Below are positions 10,512 through 21,255 of a stretch of 64,000 nt of DNA, in pieces. Under the pieces are notes generated by a model. It saw only the letters and a program-made list of their open reading frames with translations, did no database searches and was not told where the DNA came from. The stretch spans positions 576,001 through 640,000 of the forward strand of contig OY821645.1 of assembly GCA_963682135.1 (NCBI GenBank). The letters are read 5' to 3'. Within the stretch, counting starts at the first letter, position 1; every line of letters starts with the position of its first letter. This DNA is from Methanothrix sp. GTDB lineage: Archaea > Halobacteriota > Methanosarcinia > Methanotrichales > Methanotrichaceae. A program made the translations under genes and the position numbers.

Positions 10512-10530
10512 AGCCTCCTCTTTACTCTTT

Positions 10531-11067
10531 TTATAGGTCAGCTAAGCTGAGAATTGAGCTTAAGTGGTTTGAATCTATTCTTAAATTTTTACAAATATTA
10601 AATAATGGAAAGTCCTGTGTTAATACACATGCACGATTATTTTTTGCACATAAAATTAATGATGAATCTGTAAAGCCGAATTTCCATGCATTCGAGCTTA
10701 AGTATTTATCGAAAAGGATTTCATTTTTTGATACGTAAACTTCATTAATTAGTTTAAAATATTTGTTATTAACATCGAATATTTCCTTTTTATCTTTTTT
10801 ATTACTAATATCATTATCTATAAGGTTCCATGCCTCTGAAAGAATTCCGGGAGTAATCAGCCGCTCCGCTGTGCAGTTCAAATACTGCTTTAAGATATCG
10901 TAATGTATCTTATTGCAGGGCATCCCTCCATATTTTATTCGTTTCATTTTAGGAATGTATTCCGGATCATAATTTCCTATGAGAAATAATAGAAGCGGAC
11001 CAGTATCGATTACTACTTTAGCAGGGACTTTGATCAATCTTTTCAACATCCATGATTTCTCCTTCAT
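10531..11067 (-). CDS. PIN-domain (VapC-like) ribonuclease
   Basis: VVIDTG, ILSEA, GFTDSSLI, VLTQD acidic PIN residues; AT-rich. Confidence 0.8.
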   Translation of the reverse strand: MKEKSWMLKRLIKVPAKVVIDTGPLLLFLIGNYDPEYIPKMKRIKYGGMPCNKIHYDILKQYLNCTAERLITPGILSEAWNLIDNDISNKKDKKEIFDVNNKYFKLINEVYVSKNEILFDKYLSSNAWKFGFTDSSLILCAKNNRACVLTQDFPLFNICKNLRIDSNHLSSILSLADL

Positions 11068-11245
11068 TATCCACGATTATCTTGAACTTTTTAGCTTCTT
11101 CATCAAACAAATCTTGAACCATGCAAATTACTATCCACTTATCACCGTCTCTTTTTACAGAAATAGTTTCAAAGATAAATTTTATAAGAGACTTCGTCTC
11201 TTCAAAATACCTCTTGGCAGCTATACCAGCATCTTTAGCATTCAT
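11018..11245 (-). CDS. Small protein upstream of and overlapping the PIN gene, putative antitoxin
   Basis: 75-aa ORF with GAGGTGA RBS; paralogous pseudogene at 11604-11829. Confidence 0.65.
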   Translation of the reverse strand: MNAKDAGIAAKRYFEETKSLIKFIFETISVKRDGDKWIVICMVQDLFDEEAKKFKIIVDNEGEIMDVEKIDQSPC

Positions 11246-11315
11246 AATCTCACCTCAATATGGTCTCATTATGAGCTATACCTTTTTAAATTATCCCCAG
11301 AAATTGGAGAGGCAG

Positions 11316-11666
11316 ATGAATTCTGATGCCCATTATTGCTGCAGCGCAGGCAGGATGCGTGAAGGGAGGCATGATTTTATGGCTAGGGCAGGAGATGAGA
11401 TCCTGGTCATCAAGGATGTTCCGGCTCTCATCTGCGATACCTGCGGCGAGGTCGAATACGCGCTGGAGGTATCAAGAGAGATCGATGTGATCATGAAGGA
11501 TTTCTTCGCGGGACGGCTGCTGGCAAAGCCCCTGGCGGCGGGGGAGAATGGCATTCAAGCCCCAACGGGCGGATTCGATGGTATGTGCATAGTCTGGAAT
11601 GGTTCAGATGGGACTTTTGTCGAGCATTTCGACTTCCATGATTTCTCCTTCGCCATTCACGATTAG
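11316..11666 (+). CDS. YgiT-type zinc finger (MqsA-like antitoxin domain), 3' end probably aberrant
   Basis: CC.AG.M...ILVIKDVPALICDTCGEVEY after GGAGAGG RBS; tail runs antisense into the pseudogene. Confidence 0.7.
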   Translation: MNSDAHYCCSAGRMREGRHDFMARAGDEILVIKDVPALICDTCGEVEYALEVSREIDVIMKDFFAGRLLAKPLAAGENGIQAPTGGFDGMCIVWNGSDGTFVEHFDFHDFSFAIHD

Positions 11667-11829
11667 TCTGAACTTTTTGTCTTCATCTTCAAATATCTTG
11701 GACCAAGCAGATGATCACCCAATTATCAGAATCTCTTTTGCGGAGACCATCCCAAAGATGAACTTGGTTAGGGTTTTGGTTTCTTGAAAATATTTCTTGG
11801 CGGAAATTGCGGCATCTTTGGCATCTATG
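11604..11829 (-). pseudogene. Degraded paralog of the 11018-11245 protein
   Basis: Reads IDAKDAAISAKKYFQETKTLTKFIF...WVIICLVQD...EDKKFRLIVNGEGEIMEVEMLDKSPI; ATA in place of a start codon and two frameshifts. Confidence 0.75.
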
Positions 11830-12141
11830 TCATCACTCTTGGTTCATTATGAGCAACACATTTATCAATTTCCCCAAAGATTGTGCAGAGAGACCTGAAT
11901 CATGCAATACTGCGCATGACCTGCCCAAGGGGCCCGTTTCCTGAGCGCGAAAGCAACGAGAGGCACGGACCACAAGCGCACACCCGCGAGGGCGCGCGTG
12001 CGGGCAGACGGTGGCACTAGAGGAGGGCTGCTCAGCGGCCACCGGTTGGAGCGGCTCAAATGACGAGGGTAGGCGAACGTAAATGGTGGAAGGCGATATG
12101 CAAAGAATAAATCTATAAATTTTTTTATATAGGTGATATGT

Positions 12142-19903: not shown

Positions 19904-20206
19904 ATGAATCGATTTGAGGACCTGAGGGATAAAGTTTTGCCATTGCTCAGGCCCTACGTTAAGCGCATTGCCGTCTTCGGGTCTTTTGCTCGGGGCGAGG
20001 AGACACCAGAAAGCGACATCGACCTTCTGGTGGAACTAAGAGCCGCAGACAGCCGTCCCCGACTTGGGCTGGCATGGTTTGGCCTGGAAGAAGAGCTTGG
20101 CCGCGTTCTGGGAAGAGAAGTGGAACTTATAGCTGAAGGCTCTCTAAGTCCATATTTGCGACCCTACGCAGAAAAGGATCTGGTTCTGCTCTATGAAGAA
20201 AGATGA
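19904..20206 (+). CDS. Minimal nucleotidyltransferase (MNT) antitoxin
   Basis: VFGSFARGEETPESDIDLLV. Confidence 0.9.
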   Translation: MNRFEDLRDKVLPLLRPYVKRIAVFGSFARGEETPESDIDLLVELRAADSRPRLGLAWFGLEEELGRVLGREVELIAEGSLSPYLRPYAEKDLVLLYEER

Positions 20207-20552
20207 CTCGGTTTATCTTCGCCATATCATGGATGCCTTCATGCAGATAGAGCACTACACCGATGGCGTCTCTCATGAAGAGTTTATGAAAGACAATCTG
20301 ATTCAAGATGGAGTAATTAGACAGCTAGAGGTTATGGGAGAGGCTGCTCGCAATCTATCCGATGACCTGCGTGGCGATTACCCGCATATTCCCTGGCGTC
20401 AGATGATAGGCCTTAGAAACCGCATGATTCACGCTTATTTTAACGTAAACCTGTAGATTATCTGGGAGATCGTTCAAGGGGATATTCCAAATCTAAAGCG
20501 AGAGACGAAGCGCGTGCTTGAGGATATTGGTCAGGAAAGCCGACATATATAG
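20193..20552 (+). pseudogene. HEPN (DUF86) toxin interrupted by an in-frame TAG at 20454-20456
   Basis: YLRHI...[36 protein letters not shown]; RxxxxH motif present and homology continues past the stop. Confidence 0.8.
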
Positions 20553-20604
20553 CGGCAAACGTTTTCCCGGGGCCGGAGTCCTTTAAAGCAGCATCCACGG
20601 CTTT

Positions 20605-21080
20605 AGCGCGGCTGCCGGTGGCCTCGCAAGAATCGTCAAGCCGGTCTTTGTGCGTCCTTTGTGAGCTTGGTGCGCTTTGTGGTTTGGTGCGTTGCTGCTC
20701 CGATATAATTATCAGCTAATAATATCGCAAGTCACCATCGTTTCCAATAGTCCTGCCCCCCGAAAAGCCGCCCAGCCGGTGACCGGCTCCACCTGGCACG
20801 ATCGATTGCCTGGCAAGCCAGCCCGCCCGAAGCAACGACGCGATGCGGGCGATGGGCTGATGGGGCGCGGCTGCCGGTGGGCCCGCAAGAATCGCCAAGC
20901 TGGTCTTTGTGCGTCCTTTGTGAGCTTGGTGCGCTTTGTGGTTTGGTGCGTTGCTGCTCCGATATAATTATCAGCTAATAATATCGCAAGTCACCATCGT
21001 TTCCAAGAGTCCAGCCCCCCGGAAATGCCGCCTAGCCGGTGACCGGCTCCACCTTGGCACTAGCGCTTACCAGGCAATCA
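20605..21080. repeat. GC-rich repeat block 4 (two tandem units, cores 20701-20727 and 20960-20986, 259-bp period)
   Basis: cgatataattatcagctaataatatcg occurs twice with near-identical flanks. Confidence 0.9.
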
Positions 21081-21084
21081 GAAA

Positions 21085-21170
21085 GCTGCCAATAAGCTCG
21101 GATTTCAGATGGTGAGGCAAAAAGGAAGCCACACCAGATGGAAACATCCCGATGGCCGAGCGACTACCAA
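21085..21170 (+). pseudogene. HicA toxin fragment
   Basis: AANKLGFQMVRQKGSHTRWKHPDGRATT matches the HicA core; 5' and 3' ends missing. Confidence 0.7.
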
Positions 21171-21255
21171 TTGTCAAGGTAAAAGGAAATTCCATCAAAT
21201 GGAAGGTTCAATCAGTTCTATAAAAAAGATTGTAAAAGGAGAATGGATTACAGCC

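Follow-up and report, generated by a model that had tools for sequence, protein, structure and literature searches.

We analyzed the DNA downstream of the leucyl-tRNA synthetase gene (leuS) in a one-contig Methanothrix sp. genome of 3.04 Mb with 50% GC (guanine plus cytosine). The stretch under study, called here the window, comprises 64,000 nucleotides, positions 576001–640000 of the contig, and coordinates given below are those of the window unless the genome is named. The leuS gene (7524–10511, + strand; Pfam tRNA-synt_1, Anticodon_1, and the LeuRS editing domain) is the conserved left anchor of an array in which blocks of a repeat, all in one orientation, alternate with toxin–antitoxin and defense genes. 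Our results showed that the array is a lineage-wide, multi-locus way of organizing such genes between dedicated co-oriented repeats, with leuS as a favored platform. Its cassettes may be reshuffled by recombination within the repeats, most likely through the general machinery of the host, a reading to which we give about an even chance of being correct.

Repeat blocks and cassettes

A preliminary description of the window, made from its letters, had reported four same-orientation GC-rich repeat blocks alternating with cargo, and its coordinates and most of its labels were correct. A find_repeats-type search of the window gave repeat families of 3–7 same-strand copies. A unit model of 318 positions, obtained from an alignment of copies and an iterated nhmmer profile, gave ten hits, all on the + strand, or one to about 2.5 units per block. 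Block 1 (15633–16263) consists of two nearly full tandem units at 15633–15945 and 15950–16263 (model positions 4–318 and 12–317). Block 2 (17768–18414) has a unit covering model positions 32–318 (17768–18052), a second covering 15–111 (18067–18159), a CTTCGCG-type insert, and a variant unit covering 2–197 (18216–18414). Block 3 (19229–19745) repeats this arrangement with units 20–318 (19229–19535) and 14–111 (19549–19642), a CTTCGCG-type insert, and the start of a variant unit, and block 4 (20586–21080) holds units 135–318 (20586–20766), 14–69 (20780–20831), and 130–318 (20835–21025), followed by the first 25 nt or so of a further unit. The GC content of the blocks is 55–71%, against 50% for the genome. 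A 20-nt AT-rich motif within the unit had six matches in the window and none in 100 shuffles.

The cargo that alternates with these blocks was confirmed to be a SIR2-STAND gene, a membrane protein gene, a TumE pair, an MNT-HepT pair, and a HicA remnant. The SIR2-STAND NTPase (12133–15504, +; 1123 aa) matched Pfam SIR2_2 and nSTAND3 as well as the SIR2-type models of PADLOC, and it occupies a slot for large defense genes whose content varies among relatives. Cassette 1 (16567–17679, −) encodes a 370-aa multi-pass membrane protein with at least seven hydrophobic stretches, for which no family match was found. Cassette 2 (18503–19143, −) is formed by TumE (18503–18847; Pfam TumE, E 9e-14) and a 93-aa upstream partner (18862–19143); by tblastn, the two proteins were 77% and 86% identical to a pair in another genome, G024. 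Cassette 3 (19831–20522, +) carries MNT (19904–20206; Pfam NTP_transf_2) and HepT (20193–20456; HepT-like). The HepT toxin of the window is probably truncated: it is cut by a TAG at 20454–20456, where its relatives have CAG and run on for about 30 aa. The MNT start is preceded, at a distance of some 75 nt, by a box that is, we presume, TATA-like. The last item is a remnant of a HicA toxin of about 17–20 residues near 21094–21144 (+), recognized by Pfam HicA_toxin in residues 2–20 of the open reading frame (ORF) 21109–21747 and by tblastn with the HicA of genome G016. The modules had been called AT-rich, which is right for the SIR2-STAND gene (24–41% GC) and the membrane protein gene (19–33%), together 19–41%, and wrong for the TumE and MNT-HepT cassettes, which have 44–51% GC.

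The repeat unit starts with a short GC palindrome, followed by a strongly conserved core of about 95–120 nt and then by optional parts, namely a GC-rich stretch, a CTTTGTG-type heptamer-repeat element, and an AT-rich box with a 27-nt near-palindrome plus a tail. These extensions bring the unit to the 318 modeled positions or slightly more, and units span 95–365 nt in all. A CTTCGCG-type heptamer-repeat element can precede the unit. Identity between units was 72% within genomes and 68% between genomes, and 17 of 38 units had their nearest neighbor in their own genome (8% expected by chance); the units thus show signs of partial homogenization within genomes. The ends of the unit hits scatter, with peaks at model positions 95, 110–115, 122, 131, 137, 148, 202, 265, 288, and 313–318.

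We found no conserved secondary structure in the repeat. RNAalifold gave −2.5 and −0.9 kcal/mol for the two strands of 38 full units, and column-pair counts over 101 cores gave only pairings of GGCC/CCGG tetramers with almost no double (compensatory) changes. The 5′ palindrome had a 5-bp stem in 38% of 103 copies and in 13% of shuffles. A structured RNA or an attC-like DNA was dropped as a candidate, with no support from any of these three analyses. A protein-coding repeat was rejected as well: several frames are open in the GC-rich part, the longest of them changes from copy to copy, and we do not read this part as coding.

The preliminary description tied the repeat to the array, and a genome-wide search agreed, since the repeats were not scattered. 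In the 3.04-Mb genome, nhmmer gave ten hits to the core, all within three toxin–antitoxin arrays: five in the window, three at 686–688 kb of the genome, and two at 1436–1438 kb. The full composite repeat occurs in this genome in the window only. The two other sites are small arrays of PIN/AF2212-like, HicA/UPF0150, HepT, and HicA cassettes with ordinary flanks (an ammonium transporter, UvrC, a SIR2 protein, and an insertion sequence, IS). Only the heptamer sub-elements are dispersed singly in intergenic DNA, about ten of the CTTTGTG type and five of the CTTCGCG type. Heptamer sub-elements also stand as inverted pairs at genome positions 171371, 746631, and 1958938, where they could form long hairpins.

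Within the genus, the core was present in 36 of 59 genomes (19 of the 30 of high quality) and absent from a sub-clade. A 651-nt block was found in 20 of 24 same-genus genomes and in none of 16 genomes outside the genus. An exact 20-mer of the core occurred in 72 stretches of a species-level genome collection. The unit profile matched only 30 of these, whose titles name Methanothrix, Methanosaeta, Methanotrichaceae, or Methanosarcinales. The other 42 are bacterial and had no profile hit; we read them as chance matches in GC-rich DNA. All unit hits shared one orientation at 20 of the 21 loci with at least three of them. The repeat matched no known element in the collections searched, in line with the preliminary description: there was no Rfam match (cmscan of window 10000–23000, E up to 1), no blastn match to the 651-nt block in the plasmid and phage collections, and no exact match to the core 20-mer in viral contigs. 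On these comparisons, repeat-punctuated cassette arrays appear to be specific to the Methanothrix (Methanotrichaceae) lineage and to occupy several loci in it. A link with repetitive extragenic palindrome (REP)-associated tyrosine transposases (RAYT) or IS200 was considered and set aside; the genome has seven IS200-type Y1 transposase genes, none adjoining an array, and a single IS200-type gene 1.1 kb from an array in genome G006 was treated as incidental.

Cassette order and the leuS platform

The cargo between repeats differed among genomes and the order of the cassettes was permuted, as the preliminary description had proposed. The leuS of genome G053 is 95% identical to that of the window in nucleotides (98% in amino acids), and its leuS-proximal module is 95% identical, yet it has none of the array cargo of the window. 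The TumE and MNT-HepT cassettes recurred in G024, G017 (twice), and G061 at 77–84% identity and with the same homology limits. Three pairwise order conflicts were found among the cassette families shared between genomes. A single orientation was kept by 14 of 17 shared families, and the families divide about evenly between the two strands. The TumE cassette was present once in G024 and twice in G017, at 77–78% nucleotide identity. The two copies in G017 (locus L037, 6133–6820 and 10247–10935) lie in one array, each 78% identical to the cassette of the window, and are a within-array duplication.

The MNT-HepT cassette was followed over a larger sample, in which searching metagenome contigs for the MNT protein gave 80 loci. 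Its homology limits were the same in G061, G024, and many metagenome contigs, and it was present at 74% nucleotide identity or more in 40 compared loci, including the arrays of the window, G024, and G061. Where the flank measured at least 450 nt, a repeat lay within 450 nt of the cassette on 21 of 29 left sides and 24 of 34 right sides, always on the strand of the cassette. On the left, the next cassettes of 26 loci made up 19 clusters, and on the right those of 28 loci made up 20; some of these loci are the same strain assembled repeatedly, and the cluster counts are contexts, not independent events.

Breakpoints between near-identical contigs fall inside repeats. From roughly unit position 65 onward to the right, contigs L070 and L072 have one and the same sequence; they form a mosaic over some 60 nt before it and are unrelated further left. 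Contigs L042 and L044 match the window at 94% identity over the cassette and depart from it within a flanking repeat to the left as well as to the right. Junctions of repeat with cargo were found at many registers of the unit, and the four blocks of the window end at different registers. Among assembled contigs of metagenome runs, X1 and X6 gave next to no cover of 12.1–15.5 kb and 16.4–17.7 kb, which is not proof of absence, and contigs of 97–98% identity from X1, X3, and X6 covered the TumE and MNT-HepT cassettes in part. Some contigs joined separate blocks, for example 18325 to 20606, 19637 to 20820, and 21028 back to 18055 (X3); these joints have sides of 20–101 nt with 90% likeness, for which other repeat copies or strains could account, and nothing was drawn from them.

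Orthologues of leuS were found in 49 of 59 genomes of the genus. A leuS match was present in 48 other genomes; DNA downstream of the gene was taken from 20 of them, and 19 were compared after one short locus (L025, 545 nt) had been dropped. Repeats lay downstream of leuS in 11 of the 19, in leuS orientation and from 5–7 kb past the gene. Of the remaining eight, one had a single hit and seven had none; five of these seven had less than 7 kb beyond leuS and two had 15 kb. All sub-element hits at leuS loci but one were in leuS orientation. The recurring layout is leuS, one or two small modules and ygiT, a slot of 3–5 kb, and then repeats alternating with cassettes of 0.5–1.0 kb.

Between leuS/ygiT and the first repeat, relatives have different defense systems, and this position is a defense hot spot beside a core gene. 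It is filled by the SIR2-STAND gene in the window, by a 1643-aa NACHT protein in G053, and by GajB (E 3e-178) with neighboring genes in four genomes. Elsewhere it held a cyclase of the cyclic oligonucleotide-based antiphage signaling system (CBASS; E 2e-112), a GmrSD/HEC-05 protein, an HD-CE protein, or a 1083-aa protein of no known family with a RelA/SpoT protein. The array cassettes across leuS loci included DUF4258, HicA, HicB/UPF0150, MNT, HepT, PIN, PIN-DUF3368 with UPF0175, and TumE, together with several unclassified ones and one IS. One check put forward in the preliminary description was whether both flanks of the array stay fixed. This was true of leuS, which stays while the cargo varies, and not of the right flank: in none of the 19 other genomes examined was the 373-aa gene at 21256 or FeoB found up to 15 kb from leuS, and a fixed right flank was rejected.

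In six genomes a second, partial leuS 3′ end of 187–366 bp was found 1.1–2.4 kb downstream of the gene. The left ends of these displaced fragments vary and all of them reach the leuS stop; a toxin–antitoxin pair, a GmrSD gene, or a module of the type seen in the window lies between leuS and the fragment. A landfill-metagenome contig (X3, 1332 nt) has the same arrangement, with a leuS 3′ copy after ygiT. In G059, the in-gene leuS 3′ end is 69% identical to the window and the displaced copy 82%; the in-gene end is the more foreign of the two. Displaced leuS 3′ ends of this kind suggest that incoming DNA was inserted by homology anchored in leuS. At locus L033 (480–800, genome G051) there is also a direct duplication of roughly 95 nt, made of the last leuS codons and the DNA just downstream, another indication that recombination at the leuS stop has recurred.

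Genes bordering the array

An AT-rich module of two ORFs lies just past the leuS stop (10531–11245, −), with a 178-aa ORF at 10531–11067 and a 75-aa ORF at 11018–11245. Neither had a family in Pfam, NCBIfam, or PADLOC, and the label PIN, given earlier to the 178-aa product, was not confirmed. The module is collinear with G053 at 95% identity, and in G053 a leuS 3′ duplicate comes next. The YgiT module placed after leuS was found as expected: a YgiT-type zinc-finger (MqsA-like) gene is present at 11316–11666 (+; TIGR03831, E 1.5e-8). Its region (11297–11600) matched eight other leuS loci at 77–88%, and the gene is kept after leuS in many relatives. A direct repeat of 91 nt, 77% identical, links 11017–11107 in the region of the 75-aa ORF with 11603–11693 just past ygiT, where the copy is apparently degraded. 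A degenerate repeat fragment reported at 11970–12010 was not borne out. It is a 29-nt match of 79% that the unit model misses even at E 10, and a unit fragment ahead of the SIR2-STAND slot was set aside, the model having recovered none.

The gene of 373 aa at 21256–22377 (−) has no Pfam family, and only in this genome does it border the array on the right. Its product has many paralogues in the genus at roughly 30–48% identity. Many of these have exactly one in-frame TAG in the matched stretch (for example in G005, G060, G004, G054, and G015, and also in G061, G001, G063, G047, and G069), which could reflect decay, read-through, or a recoded codon. Inside the gene of the window, a tandem duplication of 93 nt in perfect register (21505–21690, 94% identical) gives a repeated 31-aa segment.

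Mechanism and comparison with known systems

The preliminary description had offered two mechanisms, a recombinase acting in trans and homologous recombination between repeats. The data fit recombination between repeats and do not decide between homologous and site-specific exchange. We favor, at about even confidence, a lineage-specific cassette array in which the repeats would serve as portable homology. Through crossovers and gene conversion in the repeats, between copies of the array and between strains after DNA transfer, cassettes would be lost, duplicated, exchanged, and put in another order. The homology anchor at the left edge would be leuS, and incoming DNA would leave displaced leuS 3′ fragments behind. 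The agent would be the general recombination machinery of the host, with illegitimate joins adding the ragged junctions of repeat and cargo, and an integron-type integrase is probably not involved.

Several observations weigh against this reading. The units are only about 70% alike, a poor substrate for homologous recombination, with identity confined to short tracts such as the 20-nt core. Unit hits begin at model positions 2–6 in 170 of 402 cases (a set that includes overlapping and near-identical loci and is not independent), a polarity that simple homologous recombination does not predict, and several breakpoints between close relatives cluster at the 5′ edge of the unit. The strong primary-sequence conservation of the non-coding core across the genus suggests selection for something, possibly a protein binding site, which passive homology does not explain. 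Most of the comparison arrays, moreover, come from metagenome-assembled genomes (MAGs) and metagenome contigs, where repeats can yield chimeric joins.

Some of these points would be expected of a cassette system with site-specific recombination of its own, the archaeal counterpart of an integron, which we regard as rather unlikely, though the most probable of the alternatives. The site would then be the core of about 95–120 nt or the 27-nt AT-rich near-palindrome, and XerA or another recombinase encoded elsewhere would move the cassettes as circles. The arrays would in that case form a new gene-cassette system, based on a lineage-specific, unstructured element of about 100 nt unrelated to attC, whose recombinase would cut out cassettes, take in others, and change their order at several platforms on the chromosome, with leuS as the chief one; this, too, we hold with little confidence. 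Co-oriented repeats of attC-like size, toxin–antitoxin cargo, and minimal separators of 84–117 nt between cassettes are consistent with it, and so are the orientation of MNT-HepT, kept on all 45 repeat-flanked sides, the units that nearly always begin at the first positions, the breakpoints at the 5′ edge, and the divergence of the repeats, too great for easy homologous recombination. Nine unit hits end at model position 265 and a few start at 267–268, which is the center of the near-palindrome with its 11-nt arms. However, no recombinase was found beside the six arrays checked, nor beside other arrays with annotated flanks. As to a co-occurring tyrosine recombinase, PF00589 is present in this genome only at 912, 1634, and 2807 kb and not near the array; in five further genomes, none was within 45 kb of the leuS arrays and the nearest was at about 47 kb. 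The 38 full units and 101 cores lack a conserved hairpin, and the stem frequency of the 5′ palindrome given above is low. Repeat/cargo junctions at many unit registers also argue against a fixed site, as does the DNA before the unit start, which is one of two conserved leader modules, so that the unit has no sharp terminus. Cargo lies on both strands, and MNT-HepT, the one cassette examined, has its own box, TATA-like on our assumption.

The conservation of the core without structure or coding signal would also fit repeats that are working cis-elements, such as insulators, terminators, or binding sites for chromatin or regulatory proteins, with shuffling as a by-product of their similarity. 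Their tight tie to toxin–antitoxin cassettes at three loci of the genome points the same way, and the unit contains an AT-rich box, presumably TATA-like, and heptamer sub-elements, the latter also found singly in intergenic DNA. We consider this explanation improbable, given that the repeats face one way while the cargo genes face both ways, that up to five tandem units stand without a gene between them (locus L027, 5922–7581), and that MNT-HepT, among cassettes the one inspected for this, brings its own TATA-like box. Least probable, in our judgment, is an ordinary dispersed repeat resembling REP or miniature inverted-repeat transposable elements (MITE), or an ancient vertical array with loss only, in which the apparent shuffling would be assembly error at repeats. 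The two heptamer sub-elements do behave as small dispersed intergenic repeats, some in inverted pairs, shared cassettes diverge like leuS (83–84% versus 82–84%), as they would under vertical descent, and the comparison loci are mostly MAG or metagenome contigs. Against this stand the mere ten core copies, all inside arrays, the order conflicts among several independent assemblies, the 19–20 different neighbors per side of one cassette, and G053, without any array cargo of the window beside a leuS of 95% nucleotide identity.

Integrons are the nearest comparison. A complete integron needs the tyrosine recombinase IntI beside its array, and a cluster of attC sites without integrase is called a CALIN. 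The attC sites are imperfect inverted repeats of 55–141 nt (R″-L″...L′-R′) that fold as a single-strand hairpin, and integron cassettes have their boundary at one fixed position of the site, are mostly co-oriented, and lack promoters. The Methanothrix arrays are integron-like in layout and outcome and differed from integrons in every defining feature that we looked for. Like chromosomal integrons and CALINs (the Vibrio superintegron; Ghaly et al., 2022, 10.1101/2022.02.06.479319), they have small cassettes between co-oriented repeats of about 100 nt, a cargo rich in toxin–antitoxin and defense genes whose order varies between relatives, and many arrays without an adjoining integrase. Unlike them, they have no IntI and no attI that we could see; alifold, column-pair counts, and palindrome stems gave no attC-type imperfect palindrome; the junctions are not at one fixed unit position; the cargo is on both strands, with a presumed TATA-like box of its own in MNT-HepT; and the units also occur in tandem and with long optional extensions. 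The repeat-delimited cassette array of the preliminary description stands.

In the pdif modules of Acinetobacter plasmids, toxin–antitoxin or resistance cargo is moved by the housekeeping Xer, encoded elsewhere, at 28-bp sites of 11-6-11 structure that flank the modules in alternating, inverted orientation. The arrays share with them small modules bounded by repeated DNA, but the Methanothrix repeats are direct and span 95–365 nt. Their sole dif-like feature is the 27-nt AT-rich near-palindrome with 11-nt arms, which usually lies inside the repeat and not at a boundary. The minimal mobile elements of Neisseria are exchanged by homologous recombination in conserved flanks. As in these and in defense islands, a fixed gene, leuS, borders a slot of changing defense content, and displaced leuS 3′ ends are found; unlike in minimal mobile elements, homology is also present inside the island, from a dedicated repeat family at several loci. 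The repeat resembles REP, bacterial interspersed mosaic element (BIME), and MITE repeats (see PMC3184786) in being non-coding, GC-rich, and modular, with some sub-elements dispersed or in inverted pairs. Its core differs in being low-copy, array-bound, and not palindromic, and in not lying by the seven Y1 transposase genes. The repeats of CRISPR arrays are near-identical and about 25–40 nt long, between unique spacers that are also short, whereas the Methanothrix units are 95–365 nt and about 70% alike, and their "spacers" are genes of 0.5–4 kb.

Methanothrix, an acetate-using methanogen of global importance, is difficult to cultivate and is not known to have a genetic system, and next to nothing has been described of the way in which it acquires and reshuffles defense genes. 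Full-text literature searches found no published description of the Methanothrix repeat or array. The main text of the archaeal integron preprint (10.1101/2022.02.06.479319) does not mention Methanothrix, a statement that does not extend to its supplementary CALIN tables.

The recurring, genus-level architecture described here does an integron-type job, keeping many small exchangeable cassettes in one place, with a different, apparently unstructured repeat and no visible integrase. If general recombination is responsible, it would be a clean natural example, from an archaeon, of cassettes exchanged through repeats that serve as portable homology; a site-specific exchange would make it a new system of cassette capture. 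Whichever mechanism applies, the repeat is a practical marker for variable defense cargo in Methanothrix genomes and metagenomes.

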